The notes: generated by a model from the letters alone, not told the origin. Positions 4,191 to 64,000 are shown, numbered from the stretch's first letter. The stretch is DNA of 64,000 bases from a virus (IMGVR_UViG_3300008108_007099:27492-91491); one strand, 5' to 3'. Translations and numbers: made by a program.

Positions 4191-4244
4191 TAACAATACT
4201 GAACTGATATATGAAGGTAACCAGATAGGAATATAGGGAAAACT

Positions 4245-8540: not shown

Positions 8541-8543
8541 AAA

Positions 8544-14500: not shown

Positions 14501-15422
14501 GGCCGTTGTTGGCATAGCATCTGGCGGAATCGTAGGAGAAATGATTGCCGACAACGCAATCACAACAAATGATATTGCATCGGGACAAGTGACAGGCGCT
14601 AAAATTGCCGCTACCACTGTAGCAAATGCAAATCTCGTAAACAGTGCTGTTACAATAGCCGGTTCTTCTACGGCACTTGGTGCAAGCTGGGCCGCAGCAG
14701 CCCTAACAACAGCCAGTGGTCTTCTAGCCGGCACATACTATCCATCAGGTGCTCTGACCATCGGCATAGCCTCTGGCGGAATTACGAGCGAACTAATTGC
14801 AGATAATGCGGTTGGAACTAATGAAATTAGTAACGGATCAGTTACTAATGCCAAATTGCAAAATAGCGCAGTCACGATTGCTGGCTCATCTACTTCTCTC
14901 GGCGGTAGCTGGGCGGCTCAAGCTCTTACAACAGCAAGCGGACTAGCAGCAGGAACATACTATCCATCAGGCGCTTTGACGATAGGTATTGCTACAGCCG
15001 GTGTTGTAACTGCCATGATTGCTTCTGGCGCAGTTGGTAGCAACCAAATAGCTTCTGGCGCTGTCGGCGAACTACAGATGTCCAACACAGTTGCCAACAA
15101 GACAATTATTGGCGATATTCAGACAATAAGTGCCCAAACAGGCGCTTACACGTTAGCATCTGGTGACGCCGGTAAACTAATTACAGTTAATGCAGCTGGC
15201 GCAACCATAGTCACAATACCAACAAACGCTACTGTACCTTTTGCGGTTGGATCACACATCGACTTCATTCAGCTTGGTGCTGGACAGGTCACAATTAGCG
15301 GCAATACTGGTGTAACCATAAATTACACTCCCGGCAACAAGCTTAGAACCCAATACGCTGGTGCTTCTGTAATCAAGATTGCCACAGATACTTGGTGTTT
15401 AGTTGGCGATATTTCAACATAA
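8544..15422 (+). CDS. Giant SG-rich repeat fibre protein 3 with YadA-head-like repeats and phage fibre C-terminal domain
   Basis: 2292 aa with about 18 copies of the shared module. (S/N)VxIG repeats at ~13550-14040. C-terminal YTLASGDAGKLIT...LRTQYAGASVIKIATDTWCLVGD resembles phage fibre tip domains. Confidence 0.8.
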   Translation: MAVYTLQQFNDAVAAVCPITGVTVSGNGVLGYFPAAGATSGQLSAANGVVATYSGQVTSGTPQGPVASGSFNAAILFSGTVVSPNMGSGSILSNSIGSGAVTSPKLDVGAVGANAIASGAITSGKLADNAVFGNMVASGAITANKLGIASVMNLNLSSGSITNDKLVNSTVTIAGSSTALGGSWAAQSLTAASGLSSVTYYPSGTAIFGIASGGIVAQMMGSGSVTTNAIASGSITANLLASGAVTDIVGSGSVTSGDVGIGAINNLNIASGTISNDKLVNSAVTINGASTALGGSYNNSTLTLGAGLAGGSYNGSGAVTASVASGGITSQMLADSAVASGDVAIGAINNQNIASGTVANDKLTNNSVTIAGSSTALGGSWAAQSLVHASGLSAVTYYPSGSAVVGIASGGIVAQMMGSGSVTANAIASGSVTADALASGAISAIVGSGAITSGDLGLGAVNNLNVASGTLSNDKLVNSSVTIAGSSTALGGSWAASALTTASGLLAGTYYPSGSLTIGIASGGITSELLADGSVNTNDIASGAVGTNQIASGAITGTSISSGAITGANIASGTITGSKLAAATVQNANLANSSINIAALNVPLGGSWTPQALTTASGLLAGTFYVSGALTIGIASGGITSQLIADGAVNTNDIASGAVGTNQIASGAVTGTNIAATTVANANLVNSAVTIAGSSTSLGGSWAAQSLVHASGLSAVTYYPSGSAVVGIASGGIVAQMMGSGSVTANAIASGSVTADALASGAISAIVGSGAITSGDLGIGAVNNLNIASGTVANDKLANSTVTIAGSSTSLGGSWAAAALTTASGLAAGTYYPSGALTIGIATNGVVTAMIASGAVGTNQIASGAVTGTNIAATTVANANLVNSAVTIAGSSTSLGGSWAAAALTTSSGLLAGTYYPSGALTIGLASGGITSQLIADGAVGTNELATSAVTNDKITSGTVANDKLANSSVTIAGSSTALGGSWAAQSLTAASGLSSVTYYPSGSAVIGIASGGIVAQMMGSGSVTTNAIASGSVTTNALASGAISAIVGSGAITSGDLGIATVNNLNIVSGTISNDKLVNSSITINGASTALGGSYANAALTLGTGLTGGSYNGSGAVTAAIASGGITNEMIADNAITTNDIASGQVTGAKIAATTVANANLVNSAVTIAGSSTALGGSWAAAALTTASGLAAGTYYPSGALTIGIATAGVVNAMIASGAVTGTSIAASTVANANLVNSAVTIAGSSTSLGGSWAAQALTTASGLLAGTYYPSGALTIGLASGGITSQLIADGAVGTNELATSAVTNDKITSGTVANDKLANSTVTIAGSSTALGGSWAAQSLTAASGLSAVTYYPSGAAVIGIASGGIIAQMMGSGSVTANAIASGSVTANALASGAISAIVGSGAITSGDLGIGAINNLNISSGTISNDKLANSSITINGASTALGGSYANAALTLGTGLTGGSYNGSGAVTAAIASGGITGEMIADNAITTNDIASGQVTGAKIAASTVANANLANSTITIAGSSTALGASWAAAALTTSSGLTAGTYYPSGALTIGIASGGIVAQMMGSGSVLSGAIGSGQIGPNHLSSGISVTTATKISIEGTNASGLYPVVFTSGIASSNQAYSCSGLFYNPALRSLDIVCYLSGGTTGGVSIFPGNNGTATIVGQNAARNGASTGAFSTIIGRDALASGSSEANSVIIGYRAAWGSQGTGDNVIIGKEAAANAVGTSLSVLIGDSVASRGFGNGTFGNVAIGAAAGTTADGVLMYESVHVGRQAGSAGPALASGTSGGSNIYLGAYTMRGSDGGRWNEIVIGCNMSGLGTNTITMGRTDTASGRIYGNINFPYGISFPSGGITSGGVFTASLGSGLVRSGAISSGQIGINHLAAGAWSANQVLGQDGAGNLDWITPTTTVNSGGITSGMLGIASVNNINIVSGTISNDKLANSAVTIAGSSTSLGGSWAAQALIHASGLSAVTYYPSGQAVVGIASGGIVGEMIADNAITTNDIASGQVTGAKIAATTVANANLVNSAVTIAGSSTALGASWAAAALTTASGLLAGTYYPSGALTIGIASGGITSELIADNAVGTNEISNGSVTNAKLQNSAVTIAGSSTSLGGSWAAQALTTASGLAAGTYYPSGALTIGIATAGVVTAMIASGAVGSNQIASGAVGELQMSNTVANKTIIGDIQTISAQTGAYTLASGDAGKLITVNAAGATIVTIPTNATVPFAVGSHIDFIQLGAGQVTISGNTGVTINYTPGNKLRTQYAGASVIKIATDTWCLVGDIST

Positions 15423-51668: not shown

Positions 51669-53651
51669 TTAAACCAATATACTTGTTCCATTTTTCATTT
51701 GTAAATTTAGTTCCTGACAACCGTTAAGCAATTCTAAAAGATCGTGGTCGTGTGTGGTCACAACTACCTGTTTTTCTTTGGCTAATTCACAAATCATGTT
51801 GTAAATTCCTTCAACACCGACTGGGTCTATGTTGGTTGTTACCTCGTCAAGAAATACTAAACTCGGCATTCTTCCTGTATTCAAAGTCATTACATGAGCA
51901 AAAGCTTGTGAAAGGGCCAGATTTATTCTCCGCCTTTGACCATTGCTCATGATGTGATAAATCAACGGCTTTCTGTCGGGGAATTTTAAAATTGTTTCCG
52001 ACAGTTCATTGTCAAAATTTATTTCTATTTTTGAATCAATCAAAAACTGAAGCCAATAGTTTACGTTGGCATTAAGCGCGGGAATTACTTCATCAATTAT
52101 GTACTTCCTAATTCCAGAATCGCCGAAGGCTATAGTCCAAAATGCGTAATACTCTGACTGAGTTTTTAAATCATTAATTATTACTTGTTTTGCTGATAAA
52201 GAACTATTTTCCTGTGTAATTTTTGCGTGTGTATCTTCGATCAGAGATGTGTATGGACAACCATTTTCCAAGTCTGTTAATGCTTTTTTGCTCGTTTCTT
52301 TGATGATACGAATCTTTTCTTCCACACCGGCTTTTTTGACAGTGTTGTCAGGTATTTGTATTTTATTGAGAACGCTTATCTTATCCAGCGTGTCTTTCTG
52401 TTTCTTTTCAATAGCTTTTACTTGTTTTAACTTTTCTGCCAAAACTTCCTGCAATGCCTTCTCTTTTGTTTCAAATTGAGTTTTTTGATTATCGTAATCC
52501 TTGCATTTAGCATCTGCTTCAGAGTACTTGACTTTTATATCTTTCAATAGTGATTCGTGTTCTTGCTTTATTGTTGCATAATTATCGGGATTTATGGGCG
52601 CAAAGCAATGCTGGCAGTTAACGCCGGGTTCTAACTTGTCAATTTTTGACAAGACTTCATTTATTTTTTTGCCTTCTGCCACATAATTTTGTTTAACAAT
52701 AACAAATTCATGTTTTTCTTCAAGCAATTTGGTTTTGCTTGAACTAACAGCTTGCAAATCTTTTTCGCAAGATTTTTTATCTTCTTGCAATTTTGCTAAT
52801 TCGGATTTGTATGTTTCAAGGTCAGAAGTAGCTTCTGAGAGCTGCTTTTGCGCCTCTTCAAATTTCTGCACATCCTCAGATAAATTTAAAGATTCAAGCT
52901 CTTTTTCTGCGGAATCTAATTGAGACGCAAGGCTTTTAATTTCGGTTATTTTGGTGCTTTTCCAGAGCTTCAATTTTTCCTTGTAAAGATGCTCTGTTTG
53001 TTCAAGATTTTTTATGTTGCTTTCAATATGTGAGAGTTCCAACTCGGCAGTTTTAATAGACGATGCGTGATCTTTAGCAAGGCTTTTTGCCGTCTCATGG
53101 TATCCGCGATACTTTTCTAAACTCAAAAGATTTTCGACTATGCTTCTTTTTTCGGCTGCATCGCATTCCAAAAAAGAATTGCTGTTATCGTCCGTAAACA
53201 CAAATATGTTTGTGAAAGTTTGGTAGTTTAGCCCAAGAGTGTCTTCAATTAATTTTTGAGTTGCAGGCATCCCGCCCAGTGTAAGTTCGTTATCATTCTT
53301 CCAAAAACGCAAGCTGTCAGGCTTTCGCTTTCTTTCTACCTTATAGTCATCCCAGCACACTTCTACACTTAAGCCTTTAGTGCAGTTTATGTGCATTATA
53401 TCTTTGTGACTTATTTTTTTAGGACTTTTGATAGTCTTTCCAAACAATCCATATACTATTATTTCTGGTATGCTGCTTTTGCCAGATCCGTTCGATGATA
53501 GACGTTCTTCTTCGCCCTTTTTAAGGCTATCTAAATTAACTCCCTTTACCAGAATTATGTTTCCATAATTGGCAAAGTTGAGTTCTATTCCGTCGTCGCC
53601 AAAACACAAAAAATTCTTGGCGGCGATTCTTTTAAAATTAATCTTTTGCAT
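51669..53651 (-). CDS. gp46: Rad50/SbcC-like recombination ATPase
   Basis: NGSGKSS, coiled coil with CQHC hook, MSNGQ, FLDE, TTH. Confidence 0.92.
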   Translation of the reverse strand: MQKINFKRIAAKNFLCFGDDGIELNFANYGNIILVKGVNLDSLKKGEEERLSSNGSGKSSIPEIIVYGLFGKTIKSPKKISHKDIMHINCTKGLSVEVCWDDYKVERKRKPDSLRFWKNDNELTLGGMPATQKLIEDTLGLNYQTFTNIFVFTDDNSNSFLECDAAEKRSIVENLLSLEKYRGYHETAKSLAKDHASSIKTAELELSHIESNIKNLEQTEHLYKEKLKLWKSTKITEIKSLASQLDSAEKELESLNLSEDVQKFEEAQKQLSEATSDLETYKSELAKLQEDKKSCEKDLQAVSSSKTKLLEEKHEFVIVKQNYVAEGKKINEVLSKIDKLEPGVNCQHCFAPINPDNYATIKQEHESLLKDIKVKYSEADAKCKDYDNQKTQFETKEKALQEVLAEKLKQVKAIEKKQKDTLDKISVLNKIQIPDNTVKKAGVEEKIRIIKETSKKALTDLENGCPYTSLIEDTHAKITQENSSLSAKQVIINDLKTQSEYYAFWTIAFGDSGIRKYIIDEVIPALNANVNYWLQFLIDSKIEINFDNELSETILKFPDRKPLIYHIMSNGQRRRINLALSQAFAHVMTLNTGRMPSLVFLDEVTTNIDPVGVEGIYNMICELAKEKQVVVTTHDHDLLELLNGCQELNLQMKNGTSILV

Positions 53652-54711
53652 CTTCTGCAGCCTTGACTATCTTGTTGCCAATTTCAATAAGAATCTTCTT
53701 ATCCAATGCCAAGTTTTGCACTTGTTCTACATAACGTTCAAGTAATTTGTCTTGGTTGGCGATCAAGTCTTTCGCGTCTGCCAGAGCATGTTCGTCCTGC
53801 TTTTTTATCTGTTTTTTGACTTGGACAGTAGAAGCTTTTAATTCCTCTACAACCTTTGCCATGTTTTTCTTATTGCTGTTTGCATCATTGCTTTCGCTTA
53901 TTATGCAAACAAACCCATCTTTAATTTCATTTGCATTGTAATTCTCTATTTCACTTTCCTGTATGTAAAAATGCTTTGGGCTGAAAGTATTCTCGATATA
54001 CGATAAAGAATCATTCGACGCATCCAATAAGAGAATATGTTTGTCTTCATGAGCTTCGCCGAAAGATAATTGCAAAGGACTACCGATGTATTCAACCGTT
54101 TCAGTTAATTTTTGCGCGCTGTGGTAATGACCAAAAAAGGCTCTCTTGTATCTTTTGAACAGATCACAGCCAACTACAGTCATATCTCCATCATGCTCTA
54201 TTATTACATCTGCTACTGAACCAGCTGAGTTTAACCTTGCTCCATCGATGGCCAAGTGCCCCAAAAGATAAGAATTTTCTACTTTGTCTTTTAAATTTTC
54301 AAGCTCCGTTAAAGGTTCATGTGTGTACGGAATGAAATGCCAGTTCGTTCCATGTATATCAATTTCACAGGTTTTGTCTATGACAGTTACATTTTTGATT
54401 GCTTTAAATGGTCTTACGCTACTAACACTCCAACTTGAAGCATACCATAAATCATGATTTCCCAATAATAAATATGTTTGAAAACTTTCGTTTTGGTATT
54501 TTTCAAATACATTGAAAACCAAATTGTAAGTCAAACTGTCAATTTTTTGTCTGTCGTGGAGGAGATCTCCTCCAAAAAGTACTGCATCAACCTTTTTACT
54601 TTTAGCAGTTTCAAATACCCATTCCAAGGCCGCAATACAATGCTGCAACCTCTCCTGACTTTTTTTATGTGGATGTACGTGAAGATCACTGAAAAGCAGA
54701 AAGGTAGCCAT
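53638..54711 (-). CDS. gp47: Mre11/SbcD-like nuclease
   Basis: SDLH, GGDLL, GNHD, GHYH, YIGSP.QLSFGE. Confidence 0.92.
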   Translation of the reverse strand: MATFLLFSDLHVHPHKKSQERLQHCIAALEWVFETAKSKKVDAVLFGGDLLHDRQKIDSLTYNLVFNVFEKYQNESFQTYLLLGNHDLWYASSWSVSSVRPFKAIKNVTVIDKTCEIDIHGTNWHFIPYTHEPLTELENLKDKVENSYLLGHLAIDGARLNSAGSVADVIIEHDGDMTVVGCDLFKRYKRAFFGHYHSAQKLTETVEYIGSPLQLSFGEAHEDKHILLLDASNDSLSYIENTFSPKHFYIQESEIENYNANEIKDGFVCIISESNDANSNKKNMAKVVEELKASTVQVKKQIKKQDEHALADAKDLIANQDKLLERYVEQVQNLALDKKILIEIGNKIVKAAEDAKD

Positions 54712-54747
54712 AATGTAATCATACTACTTTTACAGCCGATTTCAAGT

Positions 54748-55104
54748 TTAAGACTTTTTTTCTTGCTTTTTCAAGCATTTGTCCAGCGCGTTCCAAACAT
54801 CTGTATTTTTCAAATCAATATCAGTAGGTGCTGCTGGTGCTCCTCCCAATCCGCCTCCAAGACCAGACATGTCTGGTCCTCCTAAAGGTGGCGCTGCTCC
54901 TCCTCCTAATCCACCAGCTGGAGGTGTGGCTCCCAAACCGGGATCTCCTCCTATGCCCCCTGCAGGCAACGGTGGCGCTCCACCCATGCCTCCTCCAATA
55001 TCTCCTCCTGTCGGTGGAGCACTTCCAGCACCAGCTGCTCCTCCAACAGGTGCTGCGTCGGCTTCATTAAGCATATTTTTTACGAAATTTCTGAAGGTTA
55101 TCAT
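54748..55104 (-). CDS. Gly/Pro-rich protein, putative internal head protein
   Basis: MITFRNFVKNMLNE; ATAAATA 5 nt before ATG. Confidence 0.7.
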   Translation of the reverse strand: MITFRNFVKNMLNEADAAPVGGAAGAGSAPPTGGDIGGGMGGAPPLPAGGIGGDPGLGATPPAGGLGGGAAPPLGGPDMSGLGGGLGGAPAAPTDIDLKNTDVWNALDKCLKKQEKKS

Positions 55105-55109
55105 TACAT

Positions 55110-55132
55110 TATTTATCCATGATTAATAAATA
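55110..55132. promoter_or_regulatory. Back-to-back T4-like late promoters (ATAAATA on each strand)
   Basis: 55110-55116 (-) and 55126-55132 (+), each exactly 5 nt from an ATG. Confidence 0.65.
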
Positions 55133-55137
55133 ATTTT

Positions 55138-55593
55138 ATGAAGAGCTTTAGAACATGGTTAGAAGATGTCGCGCCATCAGCGATGGATGACCCTACTGTT
55201 GCTGGTATTCCAGATGAAACTCCAGCTGCTAGTCCTGCCGACACAAAAATGACTACAAAACAATATCTTGAAAAATATAAACTTAAACCGTGGAAAGCTT
55301 CCAAAGAACAAATACTTTCTTTTTGGAAAACCGTTGCACCTAATTCTCCTTTAGCTTTAAAACCAATTGCTTATGATCATGAAGGTTCGTCAATTCAGGA
55401 AGATACTGTCAGAATTACTGGTAGCAAGGAATTCATTTCAAGTGTTTTAAGTCGTCTGAAAGACTTTCTTAATTACGAAAATGACAAAACTAAGGTCATG
55501 GTGGCTTACAGACAAAGCCCAAGAAGCTTTTTACCCGGCAATAAAAATTCTTATATTTTCTATTTGCAGGTCATGGAGAGAGGCAAAGATTGA
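55138..55593 (+). CDS. Hypothetical protein, putative internal head protein
   Basis: MKSFRTWLE. Confidence 0.7.
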   Translation: MKSFRTWLEDVAPSAMDDPTVAGIPDETPAASPADTKMTTKQYLEKYKLKPWKASKEQILSFWKTVAPNSPLALKPIAYDHEGSSIQEDTVRITGSKEFISSVLSRLKDFLNYENDKTKVMVAYRQSPRSFLPGNKNSYIFYLQVMERGKD

Positions 55594-55745
55594 TATACTT
55601 CGTGATATTCTGTTAATTCTTCTGTTCTTTTAATTTGATTGTCGATTTTATCCGCGAGGTCCTGTTGTTTTTGCGTCATGTTTATGAATTTGCTATCAAT
55701 TTTTTCCACAAGGGCTTTAATTACCGCAACGTCGTCTAGTATCAT
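55560..55745 (-). CDS. Small coiled-coil hypothetical protein
   Basis: 61 aa; GGAGG upstream. Confidence 0.45.
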   Translation of the reverse strand: MILDDVAVIKALVEKIDSKFINMTQKQQDLADKIDNQIKRTEELTEYHEVYQSLPLSMTCK

Positions 55746-55868
55746 AATGGGACGGACCTCCGTTTTATGGACATAGTATTAATGCTGAAGAATGACTTTT
55801 ACAAGTACATTTGTGTGGAAAAATTTCTGCGGAAACCCTAAAATTAAATTATAGACAGAGGTGCAAAG

Positions 55869-57281
55869 ATGGCAAAAATTTTACTTAAAAACGACATAAG
55901 CCAAATCACAACAAAGAATGAACCTTTGTCTAAATTTCTTTACGAGAATCTCAGATTCCGCGATAGAAATTATTTCCACAATAGAGCTTACAGGCAAAGA
56001 ATTTGGGACGGTTACACGAATTTCTTTAATAAAAATAACGGTAAATTCCTAACTGGATTGCTCCCAGAAATTTTGATGGCTTGCAAAGCCATGAATGAGC
56101 CAGTTGAATTTATTGACCAAAGAACAAATGTTGAATTTTCTGTAAAAGAAATAACCTCATCCTTTTTGCATTCCTGTACACCAAAAGGTTCTACACCAAT
56201 AACTTTGGAAGACTATCAGGTAGACTTGGTAAATACCGCAATCAAGAATAAAAGAGGTGTTATATTTGCGCCAACCAGCGCTGGCAAGTCGTTGACAATG
56301 CTATCCATACTTAAATGCCTACCGTCTGGCACTAAAACTCTTGTATTACAAAACAGAAAAACTCTAGCAATTCAAAACTACGAAGAATATACTAAATGGG
56401 GCCTCCATAATGTAGGACGCATTTGGGGTGGGGTTGATGAGCCCAGTGATATTACTGTGTCTACTGTTCAGTCTATTTCAAAAGCGGAAGATCTTTTGCC
56501 GCAAGTGGAAGTACTTTTAGTTGATGAAATACATGATATGATGAGCGCGGCTCCCAAAGCTGTTTACAGAATGCTAAAAAAATGCAGTGTTAGAATTGCA
56601 GTTTCTGCTACTCCTTTCAAATTTGGAGAAAGCGACAAAATACAAAAATTTTATGTTAAAGGATTCTTCGGCCCTCCCTTCAAAATTAAATCAACAGAAA
56701 CAGGAGTTGTTACAACCAAAGAATTACAAGAGCGCGGAAGACTATCCAAAAGCAAATGTAAATTCTTCAAAATAACATCTCCAGATTTAGAATATGAGCT
56801 TTACCAAGACGCTGTAAATTTGGGCATTGTCGAAAATGCCGAACTTCACGAGAAGGTTGTTAATTTAGCAAACTCACAGTTAGGCAGAACTTTAATTTTG
56901 GTCGATAGATTAGCCCATGGCGATACATTGCAGTCTCTAATACCCAACGCTCTATGGGTTCAGGGTAAGGATAATGATGAAACAAGAAAGCAAGTTATAG
57001 AACAATTGCAAAAATCTGAGAATTGTATAGCCATTGCTACACAAGGTATTTTCAATACTGGAATTAACGTATTTGTGCATACTTTGATTAATGCTGCCGG
57101 TGGGCAAGCAGACCATCAAATAATACAGAGAATGGGTCGCGGTCTTAGAACAGCCAAAGATAAAGAAGAATTACTTTACATTGATTTTATATTTGAAACA
57201 AACCCTTACCTACACAGACATAGCCTAAAACGGGTCAAAATTTTGCAAAAACAGGGACACGATGTAGAAATTCTGGACTAA
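55869..57281 (+). CDS. uvsW: SF2 DNA helicase, UvsW-like
   Basis: WDGY, DYQ, APTSAGKS, DEIH, SATP, TGIN, QRMGRGLR. Confidence 0.88.
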   Translation: MAKILLKNDISQITTKNEPLSKFLYENLRFRDRNYFHNRAYRQRIWDGYTNFFNKNNGKFLTGLLPEILMACKAMNEPVEFIDQRTNVEFSVKEITSSFLHSCTPKGSTPITLEDYQVDLVNTAIKNKRGVIFAPTSAGKSLTMLSILKCLPSGTKTLVLQNRKTLAIQNYEEYTKWGLHNVGRIWGGVDEPSDITVSTVQSISKAEDLLPQVEVLLVDEIHDMMSAAPKAVYRMLKKCSVRIAVSATPFKFGESDKIQKFYVKGFFGPPFKIKSTETGVVTTKELQERGRLSKSKCKFFKITSPDLEYELYQDAVNLGIVENAELHEKVVNLANSQLGRTLILVDRLAHGDTLQSLIPNALWVQGKDNDETRKQVIEQLQKSENCIAIATQGIFNTGINVFVHTLINAAGGQADHQIIQRMGRGLRTAKDKEELLYIDFIFETNPYLHRHSLKRVKILQKQGHDVEILD

Positions 57282-57622
57282 GTTCCGGCTGTCATGATGT
57301 CAACGATATCACCTATGGTGCCATCTATTTCATCAACATTATCTAATTGTTTTCTTTTTGGATCGTCAGGCGGTAATTGTTTATAGAATTGAAGATTTTT
57401 AATTGTGTTTTTTACTCCCATTTGAGTGGAAGTTCCTTTGGGACCCGGCACTTCTTGCGTTTTAAGGTTTCGCAAAGGCTGTTTTCTCAGCTCTCCATTA
57501 CTTCCAATTCCGCCTAAATCAAATGCGCTTCTTAAAATGTCAAGATAATTAGTTTCTTGGTTCTGAATTGTTTCATTCAAAACTGTTAAATACCATGACT
57601 TAAATTCTAGCTTTATTTCCAT
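57278..57622 (-). CDS. Hypothetical protein, putative internal head protein
   Basis: LEFKSWYLTVLNE; TATAAATA 5 nt before ATG. Confidence 0.65.
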   Translation of the reverse strand: MEIKLEFKSWYLTVLNETIQNQETNYLDILRSAFDLGGIGSNGELRKQPLRNLKTQEVPGPKGTSTQMGVKNTIKNLQFYKQLPPDDPKRKQLDNVDEIDGTIGDIVDIMTAGT

Positions 57623-57627
57623 AGATA

Positions 57628-57635
57628 TATTTATA
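57628..57635 (-). promoter_or_regulatory. T4 late promoter consensus TATAAATA
   Basis: Exact match to the gp55 promoter consensus. Confidence 0.7.
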
Positions 57636-57652
57636 GAGGCTTAAGGTATTTT

Positions 57653-58471
57653 TTGATGCAGCATAAATTATTATTTAAAGAGTGGATTGGCAAGAGTCCT
57701 GAAGTTATGTACGGATTTAGGCCAGACGTAAGCAAAATTGAGATTCCATTCTATGAATTGGAGCCAATAGAAGCCTTTAGTGTTGAGAAATGTTTAGAAG
57801 CTTTGGCCGCGACTGGTAAAATAGACGGAAAAGAAGCAAATGACATTTGGAAAACTCAGCTTTCATACGGACATGGATTGGGAAAAGTTAGTGTTACAAG
57901 TTCTCCTTATGGATCCTATAAATTTGTAGTAAGAAGATATGTAACTGATGCTAAAGGTAATTTGGTGCCAATATGCAGGCTTGTAATACCACTAACAAAT
58001 GATTACAACCATCGCGGTCCTAATGACCCCGGCGAAGAAATATTAGCCGTCAAAATGTACGATAAAATTAAACAAATAATGTCAGAACCTTATCCTGCTC
58101 CTAATTGTGACTTTCAAAAAAGATTCGCGCACTTTGTTTACAACTTTAGTAAAGCCGTTAAATTAAAACATCCAAACATCATGGTTTACCAAGGCACTGT
58201 TAAGTTAGACGACAATAATTACATCATCAGTTTTACCTTTAAAGGATATGGTAACGGCGTGCCTAACTCACAAAAAGCAGAAGAGTTTTTGATTAATTGG
58301 CAGTATCTGCCTGAGACTGGATTATTGAGATGCTGGGGTTATGACGTAGTTTCTCCTGTAAAACAACGAGAATGGCAACCTGCTGTAAGTGAATGGGATG
58401 AGTATTTTTGTCCAACTCAGCCAGAAAATCAGATTATGAGTTGTATCATGGAAGCTTTTATGACCTATTGA
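57653..58471 (+). CDS. Hypothetical protein
   Basis: 272 aa; N-terminal LLFKEWI. Confidence 0.7.
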   Translation: MMQHKLLFKEWIGKSPEVMYGFRPDVSKIEIPFYELEPIEAFSVEKCLEALAATGKIDGKEANDIWKTQLSYGHGLGKVSVTSSPYGSYKFVVRRYVTDAKGNLVPICRLVIPLTNDYNHRGPNDPGEEILAVKMYDKIKQIMSEPYPAPNCDFQKRFAHFVYNFSKAVKLKHPNIMVYQGTVKLDDNNYIISFTFKGYGNGVPNSQKAEEFLINWQYLPETGLLRCWGYDVVSPVKQREWQPAVSEWDEYFCPTQPENQIMSCIMEAFMTY

Positions 58472-59150
58472 TTTCAAAATCAAATAAGTTATTATATATT
58501 TCTTTAGCATAATCAACGTTAAATTTATCAAAACTTTTAGAATCAGTTCGCTGAGTAATATCGTTTTTCAATTCTTCTGGCAGTTTTTTAATCCACTCTG
58601 ACAAATAAATGTAAATTGGTTTAATCTTTCGTAAAATTGCAGAAGTTTTAATCTTTGAAGCATTTTCTGCGTATTTTTCAAATGTTAATTCGTCGCCGCA
58701 AATTTTCTTAATTTCTTTCAAGCTCTCAAGCAAATCATACTCCATATCAGCATCTTGCATTGAATAAACTTGTTTTGTTAATTTATTCGCGTTTGCAACT
58801 AACTTATTCCAATAAAACCAGCGCCTTTCAGCTGGATCTCCTGTTAAAATAACAGGCTCGATTAATACAGGCGTGTCTTTTTTATTTATTCTTTTGAATA
58901 TCATCAATTGAGCTTTAATAAATAATTCGTATTCACCAATAGTTTCAAAATCTCTTTCTTTAATTAACTTAAGCATAGTCCTGAAAAGAACACTTTTCTT
59001 CAGGGTTTTAATTTGGGGGGTTTTAGAATGCATGTAATCAGGGAAAATCTTCCGCGATAATTCGACCCATAAACAACATACGCGGTAAGCAGTATCATCT
59101 TTGCCACTGAAACCATGCAACATGCTCATTTCTGGATCGTATTTCATCAC
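58458..59150 (-). CDS. Hypothetical helical protein, divergent from the ncRNA/PolA locus
   Basis: 230 aa; TAGAAT 6 nt before ATG 59147. Confidence 0.7.
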   Translation of the reverse strand: MMKYDPEMSMLHGFSGKDDTAYRVCCLWVELSRKIFPDYMHSKTPQIKTLKKSVLFRTMLKLIKERDFETIGEYELFIKAQLMIFKRINKKDTPVLIEPVILTGDPAERRWFYWNKLVANANKLTKQVYSMQDADMEYDLLESLKEIKKICGDELTFEKYAENASKIKTSAILRKIKPIYIYLSEWIKKLPEELKNDITQRTDSKSFDKFNVDYAKEIYNNLFDFEINRS

Positions 59151-59211
59151 AAAATTCTACATCTAAATCAAATTTGCCACAACTGCAAAACAACTAAAAT
59201 TGGTCATGGAT

Positions 59212-59652
59212 TAGTAAGGTGAATTAACGACCTGAAAGTCCATCGAGTCTCTTTCATAAGACAATGTTAATTCATTGTTGAAATTTAGAGATGGAAAAAC
59301 CAGTTGGGTCGATTACTCATTACCTTCAAAAGAGATTTGAGTAAAAGATAACCCCTGTGGTATGTAACGAGTACCATGGACCAACTACGGCAAAGAGGTG
59401 AGCCATACCTCCTACCCCAGCTGATGCGGGTTACCTGTCAGAGAAATCTGAATAGGTTGAAAAAGGGGTGAAATCCAACAAGAGTGAGTACTAACAGACT
59501 CAGGGTGGTTGGATTGGACAGTATGGTTAGTAGTTGCAAAACAGTTAAGTCAGTATCTCTTTAAGGTTACCAACTCCTTAGTTTTAAAGAAGATAAGTAA
59601 ACTTCTTACTTTTCTTTTTAACTATGAGTTACAGGAACCCGTGGAGGTCGGT
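59212..59652 (+). ncRNA. Candidate large structured non-coding RNA (~440 nt), family not recognised
   Basis: 585-nt gap with no ORF in the track and >=10 nested helices found by eye (coordinates in findings). G-U pairs and a GAAA tetraloop favour the + strand. Ends approximate. Confidence 0.65.
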
Positions 59653-59682
59653 TTTGAATAGCGATTAAAATTCTTTAATTAT

Positions 59683-59718
59683 TTGATATTTGTAACTTTT
59701 ATGGTATTATCCTAGAAT
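59683..59718 (+). promoter_or_regulatory. Sigma70-like promoter(s) for the PolA-like gene
   Basis: TTGATA-N16-TATTAT (with TG extension) and TTGTAA-N17-TAGAAT. Confidence 0.5.
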
Positions 59719-59735
59719 GTAAATTAGGAGAAGGC

Positions 59736-61040
59736 ATGCAGTTACAAGATCTTACGGCCAAGCTATTTGATTTCTTTAGCAAGACCAGAATGGTTTTTGT
59801 AACTTGGGATCCTGTTTCTTTTGACTCTACGACCCTAGCTAAGCTTCAAGTTCGAATTAGGTTCGATAACGGCAAAGACAATTCGATCGCGGTTCCTCTC
59901 AATTCAAGCAATTGTTTGATAATCACCAATATCCTTGAAAAACTTAATTCCACCCGTAAAACAGTTTTCGTTGGGCATGACTTTAAGATTCTGTTTACAT
60001 TTTTCAGACGTTTAAATAACAAACTTCTCGACTTGGCAAACGTATTTGATTTGGGTTGGTACGAATCCTATTACTCAAAACCTTCATCGGCAGGTAACCA
60101 AGTCCTGCAAGTTAAGCATTTGAAGGAATGGTTTGCCAACCAAGATTCTATGCGCGTATATCAAAACATATTTTCAAAATTAATTGTTCAAACCCTTCCT
60201 GCAATTGAAGGTAACGGTTTGATTAACACAGACCTTGGTCTTTTAGTGTTTCCAAATTTTGTTGTAGAAGGTCAGGCAAACGGAAGGTTGTCTTGTATTT
60301 GCGAGTACAAGCGATGCTACAACCCGCACAGTTTGTCTGATGACGAAAAAGCCGATTTGATTCTCGGCAAAGACAACGAACTCTTTATTTGGTTCGATTA
60401 CAACAACATGGAAGTTGCTGTTCTTGCTGAATTAGCAAACGACGACAACCTCAAAGAACTTATTAGTAAGAACCCTAAACAGGTTTATGAGAAAATATTT
60501 GAGTGCGCGACAGGAACAGTTGTTGAAGATGCGAGGAAACTTGCAAAAACAATGTTTCTGCCATGCATTTATGGTCAAGGTGCTGCTGGTTTGGCAAAAA
60601 GCCTAGACATCTCCTTGGACCAAGCAGCTATCTACCTGCACAATTTGAGAAATGCTTTTTCTAAGAGCTTCACTTTTGTTGAAAACGCCCACAAAGAAGC
60701 TGCAGAAAATTCATGTGCAACAGATCGCTTCGGAAGGGTTCGTAGGTTCCAGTCTGATGAGGCGTTTAAGGCCCGAAATTTCGCAATACAGGCACCATCG
60801 GCTCTTTTATGCCTCGAGTCCTTGGTTAACCTCCAAAACGCCGCAGGAAAGCTTTTTAAAGTAATGTTCACGGTTCATGATGGTTATTGTATTGCTGGTG
60901 AAAAAAGTTACTTGGAAGAGGCGTACAGGTTGGCCAAATCTGTACTAGAAAAAACCTCAGAGTTTCTGCCGGTAAAACTGAGCGTGTCAGCAAAACTAGG
61001 AAGAAATTTGGCAAAAATGACATCCATAGGAAAAAGGTAA
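59736..61040 (+). CDS. polA: Family A DNA polymerase-like protein, short (thumb missing, degenerate exonuclease)
   Basis: NGRLS, motif A FDYNNMEV, motif B RKLAKTMFLPCIYG, RFGRVR, NFAIQ, motif C VHDG; SD AGGAG. Confidence 0.85.
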   Translation: MQLQDLTAKLFDFFSKTRMVFVTWDPVSFDSTTLAKLQVRIRFDNGKDNSIAVPLNSSNCLIITNILEKLNSTRKTVFVGHDFKILFTFFRRLNNKLLDLANVFDLGWYESYYSKPSSAGNQVLQVKHLKEWFANQDSMRVYQNIFSKLIVQTLPAIEGNGLINTDLGLLVFPNFVVEGQANGRLSCICEYKRCYNPHSLSDDEKADLILGKDNELFIWFDYNNMEVAVLAELANDDNLKELISKNPKQVYEKIFECATGTVVEDARKLAKTMFLPCIYGQGAAGLAKSLDISLDQAAIYLHNLRNAFSKSFTFVENAHKEAAENSCATDRFGRVRRFQSDEAFKARNFAIQAPSALLCLESLVNLQNAAGKLFKVMFTVHDGYCIAGEKSYLEEAYRLAKSVLEKTSEFLPVKLSVSAKLGRNLAKMTSIGKR

Positions 61041-61044
61041 ATGT

Positions 61045-61605
61045 ATGCTATCAGTTTTTAAAAACTTTCCAGTAAGTGATAAAGAATACCAGATACTAGA
61101 CAAAAAATTCGGCCAGTTGTGCTATTATGCTTCTTGGCAACTAATCAGAAAGAATAGCGCCAATAATCACCAGTTTGATTTGGATGATGTTTCTCAGGAA
61201 TTAATGGTTGCAGTGCTGAGGGCCGCCAGTTATTACAAAAGACAGGTGTTTATAGACACCTCCCTTTCAGCACTCAAAAATGCTAGCATGGATAAAACAA
61301 GCAGACTTATTGTTAAAGAATTGTCGAATCTATGGGACAATCGCACTCGACATGGTGCCAGCCGTCAGAAGTTTGGCGATCACCAAGAACAAATCATGAA
61401 AGAACTTTGCCGCAAATTTTTGCCACCAAACGAAATTCCGTCCATGACTCGTGAACTAATAATGGAAAATAAATTTTTAACTTATTGCAAACAAATCCTT
61501 TGGAATGCTACAAAACATTTAGGAAGAAAGATTAGTCGCGAAAAACCCCTTCGCGCTGGTCAAGTTAGTTTGTCTGATCACGAATACCTTTCAACCGTGG
61601 AGTGA
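61045..61605 (+). CDS. Divergent sigma-factor-like protein (region 2 only)
   Basis: DLDDVSQELMVAVLRA (2.2-like) and FLTYCKQILWN...GRK (2.3-2.4-like). Confidence 0.5.
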   Translation: MLSVFKNFPVSDKEYQILDKKFGQLCYYASWQLIRKNSANNHQFDLDDVSQELMVAVLRAASYYKRQVFIDTSLSALKNASMDKTSRLIVKELSNLWDNRTRHGASRQKFGDHQEQIMKELCRKFLPPNEIPSMTRELIMENKFLTYCKQILWNATKHLGRKISREKPLRAGQVSLSDHEYLSTVE

Positions 61606-61609
61606 AAAC

Positions 61610-62074
61610 ATGAACAGAGGCCCGTACGTAGAGATTAGATTGACACCACCAATGATTGAATTGGCTCACACTTTGGCCAAAGAACTAGGTGTTTTAAGAA
61701 ATTCAATCGAGGAAGGTGCTGGTAACATTACTGGATTCTGTGCCGAATTAGCATGCAAAAAGCACTTCGGCATACCTCTAGATGAAATTCAGAACACTTA
61801 TCACTATGACATTTTGGTTAACGGTATTACGTATGATGTGAAAGCTAAAAAAAGAAAAGATGCTCCAAGATACTGGCACGAAGCTAGCATCTCTGATTAC
61901 AACACAAGTCAAAAGTGTAATTTGGGTTTTTATCCGAAACAACAATATTTGGACGAAGCAAGATTCCTTAAAAAAGGACAAATCGATGGCTCAAATAATT
62001 TTGAAGTTAAAGGGGATTGCTGGAATTTGGTCTACGAAAAATTAAATCCAATCAGCCAAATTAAAAGAAATTAG
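61610..62074 (+). CDS. PD-(D/E)XK nuclease-like protein (paralogue of 63214, internally shortened)
   Basis: G..AE, YDI, YDVKAK. Confidence 0.6.
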   Translation: MNRGPYVEIRLTPPMIELAHTLAKELGVLRNSIEEGAGNITGFCAELACKKHFGIPLDEIQNTYHYDILVNGITYDVKAKKRKDAPRYWHEASISDYNTSQKCNLGFYPKQQYLDEARFLKKGQIDGSNNFEVKGDCWNLVYEKLNPISQIKRN

Positions 62075-62148
62075 TGCAAAGTCGTGGAGTTGAACCAACG
62101 TGTGCCGGCTTATAAGGCCGGTCCTCAAAGCCGTCGAGGACACTTTGC
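62075..62148 (-). tRNA. tRNA-Ile(UAU), atypical
   Basis: GCAAAGT/ACTTTGC acceptor, CCTC/GAGG D stem, CCGGC-CT TAT AA-GCCGG anticodon arm, GGTTCAACTCC T loop. G at position 8, bulged T stem, no encoded CCA. Confidence 0.75.
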
Positions 62149-62152
62149 AGAT

Positions 62153-62227
62153 TGGGCTCTCTGGGACTTGAACCCAGAACCGAACGATTATGAGTCGTTT
62201 GCTCTAGACCAGTTGAGCTAAGAGCCC
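62153..62227 (-). tRNA. tRNA with CAU anticodon, most likely Ile2 (lysidine)
   Basis: Canonical cloverleaf GGGCTCT...AACGA-CT CAT AA-TCGTT...CTGGGTTCAAGTCCCAG; the anticodon arm resembles bacterial Ile2, with no initiator features. Confidence 0.88.
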
Positions 62228-62236
62228 TGTATAAAA

Positions 62237-62265
62237 ATAATAGCGGGCGAAATGTTTTTTATCAA
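62237..62265 (-). promoter_or_regulatory. Sigma70-like promoter of the tRNA pair
   Basis: TTGATA-N17-TATTAT, 9 nt upstream of the first tRNA. Confidence 0.7.
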
Positions 62266-62395
62266 GAGGAATTTTTCAAATGCTTTTCCGATCATATTGT
62301 GTTTCATATTCTCGCGTATTTGCCTTGCAAATTTATTCGACACCTATTACAACATTAGGATTCAGTTATTGTAATTGTTGGTCTAGGAGAAAGAT

Positions 62396-63039
62396 GTGGA
62401 GCAGCCCATTAGGCTCAAGAGAGGCGCTGTAAGGGAAGACGGCAAGATATTTTATGCTTACAGGTCTTGTAAAAGAAATTCTACTGCAATATGGTTATGT
62501 ATTTTGCCTATGTGAATACTTCAGGGGTGCCGATATACAAAAATGAAGCTGAGTACAACAAGTGGTTAGAAAGAAGAAGGTCTACTCATAGAAGATTTCA
62601 TGATCGTTGCAAGCAGTTGCCTGCTCCATCATGTCTTTTAGGTGACCCACATCCAACAATACCTAATTTGTTTGTTAAAAGAATTTATGGTCACAAGGTA
62701 ACATATGGAACTTTGGAAGAGGCAACGAGAGCCAGACTCAAAAGAAACGAAAGTTGTAAAAAACACAGGGAAATTCACAAGGAAAGGCGCAAAAAGAGGC
62801 TTCAAGAGTTAAGAAATGAGCGGATGAATTTCCTAAAAGAAAATCCACATTTACGCAGAAGCAGGGGCGACATAGACCCTGTACTTGGACAAATCTTTTG
62901 GGGATATTCAAATATGGGAAATGAACTCTGGTATGATCCAGCGCGGTTCGCAGAGAAAAAAGCCAAATTTAGTGCGCAGAGACAAAAAAGATATTACAAA
63001 AAGAAATCTGCTAAATTAGCAGAGAAAAAAAATATGTAA
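62396..63039 (+). CDS. Basic repeat-domain protein, apparently split by a frameshift (62396-62515 and 62491-63039)
   Basis: AGGAG then GTG at 62396 gives KRGAVREDGKIFYAY; a similar unit RGDIDPVLGQIFWGY lies in the downstream frame. Confidence 0.5.
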
Positions 63040-63047
63040 AAGATTTT

Positions 63048-63093
63048 TGTCAATTCCTGTCAATGCTAGGCAATCCCTGTCAACGCCAGTCAA
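63048..63093. repeat. Five (T/A)G(T/G)CAA units at exact 10-bp spacing
   Basis: Hexamers start at 63048, 63058, 63068, 63078 and 63088. Confidence 0.8.
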
Positions 63094-63144
63094 CATCTGA
63101 TTGGCGTTTCTATTTTATGCATAACTTTGTTTCTTAAATCTAAG

Positions 63145-63153
63145 TGTTATAAT
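63145..63153 (+). promoter_or_regulatory. Extended -10 promoter TGtTATAAT
   Basis: Upstream of 63214; followed by a TTGAGC/GCTCAA hairpin and SD AAGGA. Confidence 0.6.
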
Positions 63154-63213
63154 GTATTAAAAGCGATATTGAGCTTGTAGCTCAAATCGTCAAAACTTTT
63201 AGTAAGGAAAAAT

Positions 63214-63738
63214 ATGTTTGAAATGTTTGAACTGCCATTAGACGAAGAGATTTTGCAGTGTGCTAAAATCCGAGCTAAGAATCAAAGGGCTAATAAAAAT
63301 TCGTTCGAGAGAGGAAAAGGAAACTTTGTTGGTTATGTTGGTGAGTATGCCGTTAAGAAGTTTCTTGGTTTGCCTTTTGAGCCTTCAACTAAAGATTATG
63401 ACTTCATACTAGATGGTAAAAGATATGAAGTAAAGACGAAGAAAACAAAGTATGAGGTATTGCCTCATTACGAAGGCAGCGTAGACACGCATAGTGCGAA
63501 GCAGGATTGTGACTATTATCTGTTTTGTCGCGCCATAGTAACCGTACCAGATGCTGGAATAGATCAAGTATTTGCATTCGGATATTTCCCAAAAAAGTCC
63601 TACATGAAAAAAGCCAAATTCAGGAAGAAGGGCGAAAGGGATGAATCTAATGGTTGGACTGTGAAAAAGGACTGTTTCAATCTAGAGTATCAATTGTTGA
63701 AGCCGTTTAGTAAATTAGTGAAGATGGCAACTGTATGA
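63214..63738 (+). CDS. PD-(D/E)XK nuclease-like protein
   Basis: GYVGE, YDF, YEVKTK, CDYYLF. Confidence 0.7.
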   Translation: MFEMFELPLDEEILQCAKIRAKNQRANKNSFERGKGNFVGYVGEYAVKKFLGLPFEPSTKDYDFILDGKRYEVKTKKTKYEVLPHYEGSVDTHSAKQDCDYYLFCRAIVTVPDAGIDQVFAFGYFPKKSYMKKAKFRKKGERDESNGWTVKKDCFNLEYQLLKPFSKLVKMATV

Positions 63739-63956
63739 TGTTAAGAACTAAGCCGGAAACAATTATTGTGTCCGGCACATCTGTTGTAACATCTCCCCGC
63801 GCTTGTCGGGTTTTTAATTGTCATTGGGTACGGAGCTGGTACTATAGCTGGAGTAAATTTTTCAACTACAACGATAATTTTTCGTATCATTGGGCTGGCA
63901 AAACGATGTCACAGTACACTTGGTATGGTATAAGGCATGATAAGAGTAAGGTGTGA
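63735..63956 (+). CDS. Hypothetical protein
   Basis: 73 aa; ATGA overlap with the previous gene. Confidence 0.35.
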   Translation: MMLRTKPETIIVSGTSVVTSPRACRVFNCHWVRSWYYSWSKFFNYNDNFSYHWAGKTMSQYTWYGIRHDKSKV

Positions 63957-64000
63957 TGCTAATTTAACAGGCGTACCATTGGACAGGGCGACTCCGTTTT

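Follow-up and report, generated by a model that had tools for sequence, protein, structure and literature searches.

A thumbless family A DNA polymerase gene flanked by a structured RNA and a small sigma-like protein gene in a clade of uncultivated huge phages

Background

Family A DNA polymerases with a reduced thumb occur in the CcPol-MP system of SCCmec, with pairs of PolA and a single-stranded DNA-binding protein (SSB) also in other mobile elements of Bacillota. CcPol, of the A family, has an incomplete exonuclease domain as well as a reduced thumb, and a small partner gene directly downstream confers de novo priming (PMC7581432, PMC10061031). In E. coli DNA polymerase I (Pol I), truncation of the thumb leaves activity in place while processivity and fidelity fall (Minnick 1996, as quoted in PMC10061031). 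A reclassification of family A polymerases into 19 clusters describes broken, shortened and extended thumbs, and a text search of it returned no mention of a missing thumb (PMC10201439). Here we describe a 64,000-nucleotide (nt) stretch of viral DNA (IMGVR_UViG_3300008108_007099:27492-91491, hereafter the window) in which the gene of a thumbless family A DNA polymerase is preceded by a structured RNA of ~450 nt and followed by the gene of a small sigma-like protein. We found no account of such a module in the literature.

The phage polymerase shares with the large fragment of bacterial Pol I (KlenTaq, Bst LF, Klenow) the same fold from the exonuclease-like domain to the C-terminus, along with motifs A and B, the Asp of motif C, the steric-gate Glu and an F762-type Phe. 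An inactive exonuclease is common to the phage polymerase, Taq and Bst. In contrast to Pol I, the phage enzyme has ~24 amino acids (aa) where Pol I has the ~95-130 of the thumb, it lacks a 5' nuclease domain, its exonuclease-like domain is shortened, and it carries an invariant HDG instead of HDE. The likeness to CcPol-MP lies in the small partner gene immediately downstream and in a helicase gene in the neighbourhood, both found in the two systems. However, the thumb is shortened there and absent in the phage enzyme, the partner has an SSB-like oligonucleotide-binding (OB) fold there and a predicted helical sigma region-2 domain in the phage, and the phage context is that of a huge phage.

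The sigma-like protein resembles T4 gp55 in length (186 aa versus 185 for gp55) and in its predicted make-up of region 2 only, with no region 4. Both are encoded amid replication and recombination genes, with gp46/gp47-like genes nearby; in T4, gene 47 (the partner of gene 46) lies a few kilobases (kb) from the late sigma gene 55. The shared concept would be late transcription tied to replication, a task in which gp55 acts with gp33 and the gp45 clamp. The phage protein differs in bearing an insertion of ~70 aa with a basic motif, and its gene is coupled to the polymerase gene, whereas gp55 stands alone.

The RNA is comparable to GOLLD, ROOL and ColE1 RNA II in its length of several hundred nt, its many helices, its carriage by phages, the tRNA genes nearby and a function that is not obvious from sequence. 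It matches none of the GOLLD, ROOL or Rfam models, however, and it is fixed 5' of one operon, with two nested long-range helices closing a multi-hairpin core. An earlier, sequence-only reading of the window had likened the arrangement to retrons, defence-associated reverse transcriptases and telomerase. This analogy breaks down at the enzyme, a family A DNA polymerase with a steric-gate Glu and not a reverse transcriptase; the neighbouring proteins that were scanned had no reverse transcriptase domain either.

Results and discussion

Conservation and layout of the block

A clade of uncultivated huge phages keeps the RNA, the thumbless polymerase and the small sigma-like protein adjacent to each other. 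We compared 80 viral loci encoding relatives of the polymerase, with gene neighbours identified by tblastn. The sigma-like gene came straight after the polymerase gene in ~75 of the 80, at gaps of -91 to +90 nt; the exceptions were three loci at ~0.9 kb, one at 3.7 kb and one in which no such gene was found. Overlapping or abutting junctions between the polymerase stop and the sigma start were near-universal. The sigma-like protein was the more conserved of the two, with identities across loci of 43-83% versus 27-76% for the polymerase. The loci held 65 distinct regions upstream of the polymerase gene, which we grouped into sequence clusters, and an RNA of the same kind was recognisable in approximately 30 of these 65, meaning that conserved RNA does precede homologous short PolA genes in many lineages; the sequence-only reading had staked its proposal on this point, and the proposal withstood the check. 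Where extra genes separated the RNA from the divergent 230-aa gene, the RNA remained beside the polymerase gene and not beside the 230-aa gene. The occurrence of the RNA in so many upstream regions, its staying with the polymerase gene and the sigma-like gene that follows indicate that the adjacency is not incidental, as the same reading had cautioned it might be.

An IMG/VR viral contig of 91.5 kb ends with the 64 kb of the window; CheckV rates this contig as 15% complete, implying a genome of several hundred kb. Related genomes in the clade measure 380-600 kb. Phages in GenBank had no DNA-level similarity to the locus (blastn), and the only relative at the protein level there was the unannotated 595-kb uncultured phage LR756511.1. 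The block is laid out as follows, in window coordinates:

57653-58471, + strand: gene for a 272-aa protein, the upstream member of the conserved block, sharing 14 nt with the 230-aa gene at the 3' end of the latter
58458-59150, - strand: gene for a 230-aa protein (229 aa if the ATG at 59147 is the start), divergent from the RNA and the polymerase gene
59151-59735: gap of 585 nt, poor in open reading frames (ORFs), between the 230-aa and polymerase genes
59174-59200, + strand: putative RNA promoter (TTGCCA, 15 nt, TAAAAT)
~59205-59656, + strand: structured RNA of ~450 nt, from fold, covariation and strand counts
59683-59710, + strand: sigma70-like promoter before the polymerase gene (TTGATA, 16 nt, TATTAT, with TG before the -10)
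59736-61040, + strand: polymerase gene, 434 aa, from Pfam PF00476, alignment and structural model
61045-61605, + strand: sigma-70 region-2-like gene, 186 aa, starting 4 nt past the polymerase stop

This map bears out the anatomy proposed from the sequence. Coordinates, covariation, strand counts and the model agree on an RNA co-oriented with, and directly upstream of, a thumbless polymerase; the gene map, structural matches and a profile link support a sigma-region-2-like gene 4 nt after the polymerase stop; and the 230-aa gene does diverge on the other side, its relatives lying upstream of the polymerase gene on the opposite strand in 66 of the 80 loci. Relatives of the 272-aa protein were detected upstream of the polymerase gene in 44 of the 80 (tblastn).

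The thumbless polymerase

The polymerase matches Pfam PF00476 (DNA_pol_A) at 96.2 bits against a cut-off of 34.3, with only profile positions 149-379 covered. Its predicted structure (pLDDT 93.9, pTM 0.92) superposes on residues 297-832 of KlenTaq with 386-392 aligned residues and a Z-score of ~32; the alignment of 386 residues to KlenTaq 301-832 has a Z-score of 32.4 and a root-mean-square deviation of 2.7. Palm and fingers are present in the model, and ~145 KlenTaq residues have no counterpart. At the site of the thumb, ~24 residues connect the motif-1 helix (aa 136-158; PLI..VLP.IE..GL) to NGRLS (aa 182-186), and no long helices are modelled there. As modelled, the protein corresponds to a complete Klenow-like fragment that lacks only the thumb and some loops of the exonuclease domain. 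We considered that the polymerase might be split by an intron and rejected this, as the gene upstream runs in the opposite direction and no polymerase similarity was seen in the 272-aa protein.

An alignment of 38 sequences showed D221, E226 (the steric gate), K271 and D382 to be invariant and F274 to be kept in at least 90%. Motif C reads HDG(Y) in all 38, with Gly replacing the Glu of HDE. Exonuclease motif I is DST, not DxE, and judging from its motifs the 3'-5' exonuclease-like domain is shortened and inactive. Nearly all of the 66 relatives considered measured 416-453 aa (range 391-484), and longer, thumb-bearing close relatives were not found, which is weak evidence. The thumbless polymerases spread over at least 66 protein clusters and 142 viral-contig matches. 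The sequence features are those of a minimal Pol I-type enzyme with its active site apparently intact. As proofreading, 5' nuclease and thumb would all be missing, a short-patch enzyme of low processivity is expected, which might serve in gap filling, Okazaki-fragment processing or repair.

The DNA polymerases of five large related genomes (380-572 kb; three CheckV-complete and two at 79-85%) point in the same direction. No family B polymerase was detected in these five, each encoded exactly one family A polymerase, of the thumbless type, and four of them carried split DNA_pol3_alpha (DnaE-type) genes. The split DnaE-type polymerase is likely the replicase of these phages. With a DnaE-type polymerase in four of five large relatives, the thumbless enzyme need not be processive, and it is probably an accessory, low-processivity enzyme, a role that fits the effect of thumb truncation on Pol I (PMC10061031).

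The split itself is also an observation on replicases of huge phages. In genomes G002-G005 (reached through loci L065, L058, L074 and L038), DNA_pol3_alpha is present as two genes of ~470 aa and ~830-980 aa, placed 10-16 kb apart, with Pfam positions 3-98 in one gene and 100-259 in the other.

The sigma-like protein

The model of the 186-aa protein is all-helical (pLDDT 86.9). Foldseek returned no matches for it, and an exhaustive structural alignment against 48,161 chains placed sigma domain 2 first, with no fewer than 20 sigma domain 2 entries among the 50 best matches. The best sigma domain 2 match covered ~75-80 residues spread over model positions 5-165 with a Z-score of 7.4, which is below the safe level for helical proteins. 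The model suggests a sigma-70 region-2 domain split by an insertion of ~70 aa. Sequence profiles gave a similar picture: Pfam Sigma70_r2 scored 15.6 bits on the window protein, under its cut-off of 24, and matched 10 of 36 relatives below threshold, while the sigma factor family phrog_351 was matched by 2 of the 36 (PHROGs). A family profile searched against 1.84 billion representatives recovered 96 clusters only. Its weakest members, P0160 and P0161, pass the Sigma70_r2 cut-off (24.4 and 27.4 bits), providing a transitive sequence link from the 186-aa family to the sigma-70 family.

By eye, residues ~41-66 (D48..Q51-E52) resemble regions 2.1/2.2 and residues ~140-165 (F144.TY147...I.W153-N154) resemble regions 2.3/2.4. 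In our visual alignment D48-x-x-Q51-E52 falls on D403/Q406/E407 of sigma-70, residues known to bind core RNA polymerase. These region 2.2 and 2.3 signatures suggest binding to RNA polymerase and not to a polymerase clamp. Region 4 was not detected: there was no Sigma70_r4 match, and the protein ends ~20 residues past the region 2.4-like helix. Aligning the 36-sequence profile with the single sequence of T4 gp55, a weak template, gave an hhalign probability of 0.1. The ~70-aa insertion bears the most conserved motif of the family, an invariant basic LW.NRTRHGANRQKFG in the 36 relatives. An apparent fusion of polymerase and sigma-like protein in locus L041 was discarded, as a stop codon separates the two genes; there was no such fusion in our data, and a search for longer forms came back empty.

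These features would make the 186-aa protein a minimal sigma, restricted to region 2 and in concept like T4 gp55, that redirects RNA polymerase to phage promoters. The position of its gene right after the polymerase stop would then tie sigma production to the expression of replication genes.

The same gene pairing is open to another explanation, in which the sigma-2-like protein and the thumbless polymerase, perhaps together with the RNA, are one machine, a primase-polymerase resembling CcPol-MP. Either by melting or holding single-stranded DNA or by binding the RNA, the sigma-2-like subunit would enable the polymerase to start or stay on DNA, and the RNA would be a primer, scaffold or specificity element. 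The near-universal gene pairing, in which stop and start codons overlap or abut, the synteny of the RNA with the polymerase gene, the superfamily 2 (SF2) helicase gene nearby (55869-57281) and the invariant basic insertion, for which no role is known, are all consistent with such a machine. So is CcPol, which likewise has a partly truncated exonuclease domain, a reduced thumb and a partner encoded directly downstream (PMC7581432, PMC10061031). However, the partner is predicted to be all-helical and sigma-like and not an OB-fold SSB, it appears to keep residues typical of binding to the RNA polymerase core, no polymerase/sigma fusion was found either in L041 or as longer forms, and six or more loci lack the RNA at the position where it normally lies. 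We consider one machine of this kind rather unlikely.

A related proposal, decidedly unlikely in our view, is that the polymerase and the sigma-2 module form a site-specific primase-polymerase or a replication-coupled initiation complex, in which the ~450-nt RNA would act as primer, scaffold or guide. Here the sigma-2 module would either open and hold single-stranded DNA or use its invariant basic insertion to bind the adjacent structured RNA, and in this way would allow a DNA polymerase to start or to be targeted. If true, such an initiation complex would be the DNA-polymerase counterpart of a single-subunit RNA polymerase with its specificity factor.

The structured RNA

The gap between the 230-aa and polymerase genes holds a structured RNA on the + strand. 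It folds better than shuffled sequences (z = -3.66; none of 100 shuffles was as good), and between two loci whose polymerases are 76% identical it is conserved in blocks, with a compensatory change. A common RNA core was aligned across eight loci with polymerases of 41-76% identity. RNAalifold predicted 32 pairs from this alignment, 13 of them changed on both sides, a number not reached by any of 500 shuffles (6.5 +/- 1.7). Paired cells amounted to 89.8% versus 79.3% in shuffles, and the covariation score was 0.405 versus 0.193 (again reached by 0 of 500), with slid-partner controls at 0.055-0.123. The compensated pairs include two helices with strands ~200-330 nt apart. In a strand test we counted 26 G-U against 6 A-C cells, and 89.8% of cells were paired on the + strand versus 82.0%; this test leans to the + strand, as the structure itself was derived on it. 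The excess of G-U over A-C cells favours the + strand, co-oriented with the polymerase gene.

These results bear on another explanation, namely that there is no functional RNA in the gap and that its conservation reflects DNA-level signals, such as divergent promoters and protein-binding sites, or a small gene that went unrecognised. The promoters of both flanking transcription units do lie in the gap, and spurious ORFs of 50-90 aa occur in the gaps of some relatives. Nevertheless, compensation in 13 of 32 pairs, including both long-range helices, the excess of G-U pairs over A-C mismatches and the lack of any ORF of at least 50 aa in the gap of most close relatives speak against it. Given the covariation, this explanation is largely refuted, and we find it scarcely credible.

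No known RNA family accounted for the signal. Searches with Rfam 15 gave no match on 59100-59760 at E <= 10 beyond chance-level fragments, and on 54000-64000 at E <= 1 they gave two tRNAs only, plus a chance-level match overlapping the tRNA-Met. ARAGORN did not find a tmRNA. Short likenesses to RNase P, a group I intron and a cobalamin riboswitch (GAAAGUCC, ACAGGAACCCG, ACGGGAACC, GGUGAAAUCC) were rejected, as Rfam was empty at E <= 10; GAAAGUCC is part of a local hairpin whose internal loop is AGUA/GAAA, and GGUGAAAUCC lies within an insertion present only in the window copy. Based on these results, the RNA is a new large, covariation-supported family of non-coding RNA from huge phages with a fixed genomic partner.

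The family extends over several groups of loci. Clusters 1, 2 and 4 each have a conserved non-coding block with the same landmarks: a 5'-side AAAACC, a hairpin with an ACGGGA loop, the element AGGUG(A/U)GCC, and a GGC.../...GCC helix followed by CCYCGGU. Searches with nhmmer joined these clusters to L036/L045 and L019. A covariance model of the 5' core hit each related contig once, in every case 5' of the polymerase gene. The two models of this core (R1, R2) recover the close clade but only a handful of loci from cluster 2, which makes them too insensitive for a family-wide count. The window copy scored 9.6 bits, at the correct place, against a model built from relatives. A crude descriptor of the long-range helix (score >= 18) hit 16 of the 65 upstream regions versus 4 of 65 on the reverse complement, an enrichment and not a clean classifier. 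The ORF-free length upstream of the polymerase gene was too noisy a measure, owing to spurious ORFs. In at least six loci the site expected for the RNA is taken up by a protein ORF that directly adjoins the polymerase gene. As a separate observation, a conserved ORF of 61-89 aa lies between the RNA-like block and the polymerase gene in cluster 3 only (L016, L025, L028, L048, L050 and L057).

The RNA begins with a 5' hairpin containing the AGUA/GAAA internal loop, followed by a variable hairpin and a core. Two long-range helices, one nested in the other, close this core around the UACGGGA-loop hairpin, the GAGGUGAGCC hairpin and a long A/U hairpin. The helices of the window copy, all on the + strand, were read by eye, and pairs were counted in relatives only where stated:

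59206-59210 with 59239-59243: outer helix, by eye, uncounted
59217-59220 with 59230-59233: inner hairpin, in the AGUA/GAAA internal loop, counted in relatives
59296-59301 with 59650-59655: closing helix AAAACC/GGUUUU, its 5' strand tentative; the alignment fold pairs another upstream segment with the 3' strand
59355-59362 with 59372-59379: hairpin matching the counted UACGGGA-loop hairpin of relatives
59395-59399 with 59407-59411: hairpin GAGGU...ACCUC, in a register different from the four pairs counted in relatives
59426-59432 with 59636-59642: long-range helix, counted in relatives
~59583-59622: long A/U-rich hairpin, by eye

The long-range helix appears in many compensatory variants across clusters, for example GGCGGG/CCCGCC, GGCAGGC/GCCTGCC, GGCTGGTT/AACCAGCC and GCCGACTT/AAGTCGGC.

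Signals flanking the RNA

The putative promoter of the RNA is weak in the window, and in the eight-locus alignment close relatives have a TTGACA-like box, a 17-nt spacer and TATAAT at the same place; our consensus scan passed over the window site owing to its 15-nt spacer. For the polymerase gene, the sequence-only reading had proposed a sigma70-like promoter of its own. A site is indeed present at 59683-59710 with 10 of 12 consensus matches, and the relative L002 has TTGCAA ... TAGAAT at the same position, but the number of such sites in the region (3 versus 2.2 expected) is not above chance. A candidate intrinsic terminator at ~59587-59620 was rejected, as its U run pairs with an upstream A run in relatives to form one long hairpin and the terminator scan was empty. 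A further box, GATT(G)TAAAG..AGAATT(T/C), lies at 59660-59685 in the window, just 3' of the closing helix of the RNA, and is kept in L002 and in members of cluster 2 (for example L063 and L064), that is, in two clusters. The box may serve the polymerase/sigma operon as a phage-specific promoter, or it may mark the true 3' end of the RNA. Where the RNA was recognised in the sequence clusters, its 3' helix ends ~65-170 nt before the polymerase ATG.

This geometry would suit a cis-acting structured leader of the polymerase/sigma operon, whose fold, or a protein bound to it, sets the levels of polymerase and sigma. Transcription would run from the upstream sigma70-type promoter through the RNA and on into the polymerase gene, and the bound protein might be the polymerase itself, as T4 gp43 is on its own mRNA. 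The RNA is on the same strand as the polymerase gene, its 3' helix ends at this short distance from the ATG, no intrinsic terminator intervenes (the U run of the A/U hairpin being base-paired in relatives), and it stays with the polymerase gene despite insertions after the 230-aa gene. On the other hand, ~450 nt far exceeds known autoregulatory operators, a separate sigma70-like promoter lies between RNA and polymerase gene in the window and in L002, the small ORF intervenes in cluster 3, and we saw no pairing with a ribosome-binding site. A leader is unlikely on this balance, though it retains a real chance.

It is well established for ColE1 that a promoter, a structured RNA and a Pol I-type enzyme act together, and the locus mirrors this logic with its sigma70-type promoter, ~450-nt structured RNA and adjacent Pol I-type enzyme. 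By analogy with ColE1 RNA II or the mitochondrial light-strand transcript, the RNA might be a pre-primer at a replication origin that folds, hybridises to DNA and is extended by the family A polymerase before hand-over to the DnaE-type replicase. The region also lies ~4 kb from a switch in gene orientation at ~55.1 kb. Yet in a complete 572-kb relative the cumulative GC skew has no turning point at the polymerase locus (252 kb) and changes slope near 345 kb, a weak test as the locus there is atypical. Furthermore, the conserved C-rich 3' end of the RNA is held in covariation-supported intramolecular helices, which disfavours a persistent RNA-DNA hybrid. We consider a pre-primer very unlikely.

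Three proposed units in one block

We tentatively favour, at a little short of an even chance, the view that the locus is a core block for replication and late transcription, in which three functionally distinct units have been conserved side by side and are probably co-expressed, and not a proven ribonucleoprotein. The anatomy, folds, covariation and synteny are observed, and the activities and co-expression are inferred. Alongside the polymerase and sigma functions proposed above, the RNA would be a separately promoted, stable non-coding RNA that is made early and held just 5' of the operon. The good sigma70-type promoters before the RNA in relatives, and its single copy per contig, are in favour of this.

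Several observations weigh against the three-unit block. The loss of Glu in motif C, giving HDG, is shared with the HDS of T7 RNA polymerase-type enzymes and is not known from other DNA polymerases. The complete genome G001 has no DnaE match. Our scan detected no terminator between RNA and polymerase gene, such that the RNA may be a leader and not a separate unit. Conservation in the sigma-like protein peaks in an insertion that is absent from known sigmas, which hints at a partner other than RNA polymerase. Finally, a fixed order of RNA, polymerase and sigma over deep divergence, with a tight junction, would also fit a physical complex.

Neighbouring genes

The 230-aa protein had no Pfam, PHROG or PDB match, either as a single sequence or as a profile. 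A weak lead came from an Atlas cluster neighbour with T4_Gp59_N (score 0.92, 138 shared features), but the link to T4 gp59 was not confirmed, with an hhalign probability of 0.2 and Pfam T4_Gp59 matching 0 of 40 relatives. The 272-aa protein had no Pfam, PDB or Atlas assignment. Apart from the SF2 helicase gene, the surroundings encode a tail sheath and a ribonucleotide reductase. Genes for Rad50/SbcC-like (SMC_N, AAA_23) and Mre11/SbcD-like (Metallophos) proteins adjoin each other at 51669-54711 on the - strand.

Just downstream of the block, at 62074-62227 on the - strand, are a tRNA-Ile (UAU) and a tRNA with a CAU anticodon, called as Met, 4 nt apart. Two proteins of 154 aa (61610-62074, + strand) and 174 aa (63214-63738, + strand) match the same ORFs in L002 and L037, and for this reason they look like paralogues. 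An island of 54% G+C in a genome of ~35% G+C lies at 54748-55104 (- strand), at the switch in gene orientation. We considered the GC-rich stretch 54750-55100 as a second RNA and rejected it, as it holds a Gly/Pro-rich low-complexity ORF of ~118 aa that is conserved in L002. At the other end of the window, 3-15422 (+ strand) is occupied by three very large ORFs of 1395, 1431 and 2292 aa, the first two having no Pfam match.

Conclusions

The polymerase, which has lost its thumb and kept its catalytic residues, offers a natural test of the purpose of the thumb. Meanwhile, a putative region-2-only sigma with a new invariant insertion, encoded right after a polymerase gene, suggests that huge phages may link late transcription to replication by a route other than the clamp of T4. 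An RNA family with a fixed genomic partner is a concrete starting point for finding the function of the RNA. Should RNA, polymerase and sigma-like protein prove to be joined in a single complex, they would represent a polymerase ribonucleoprotein of a novel type.

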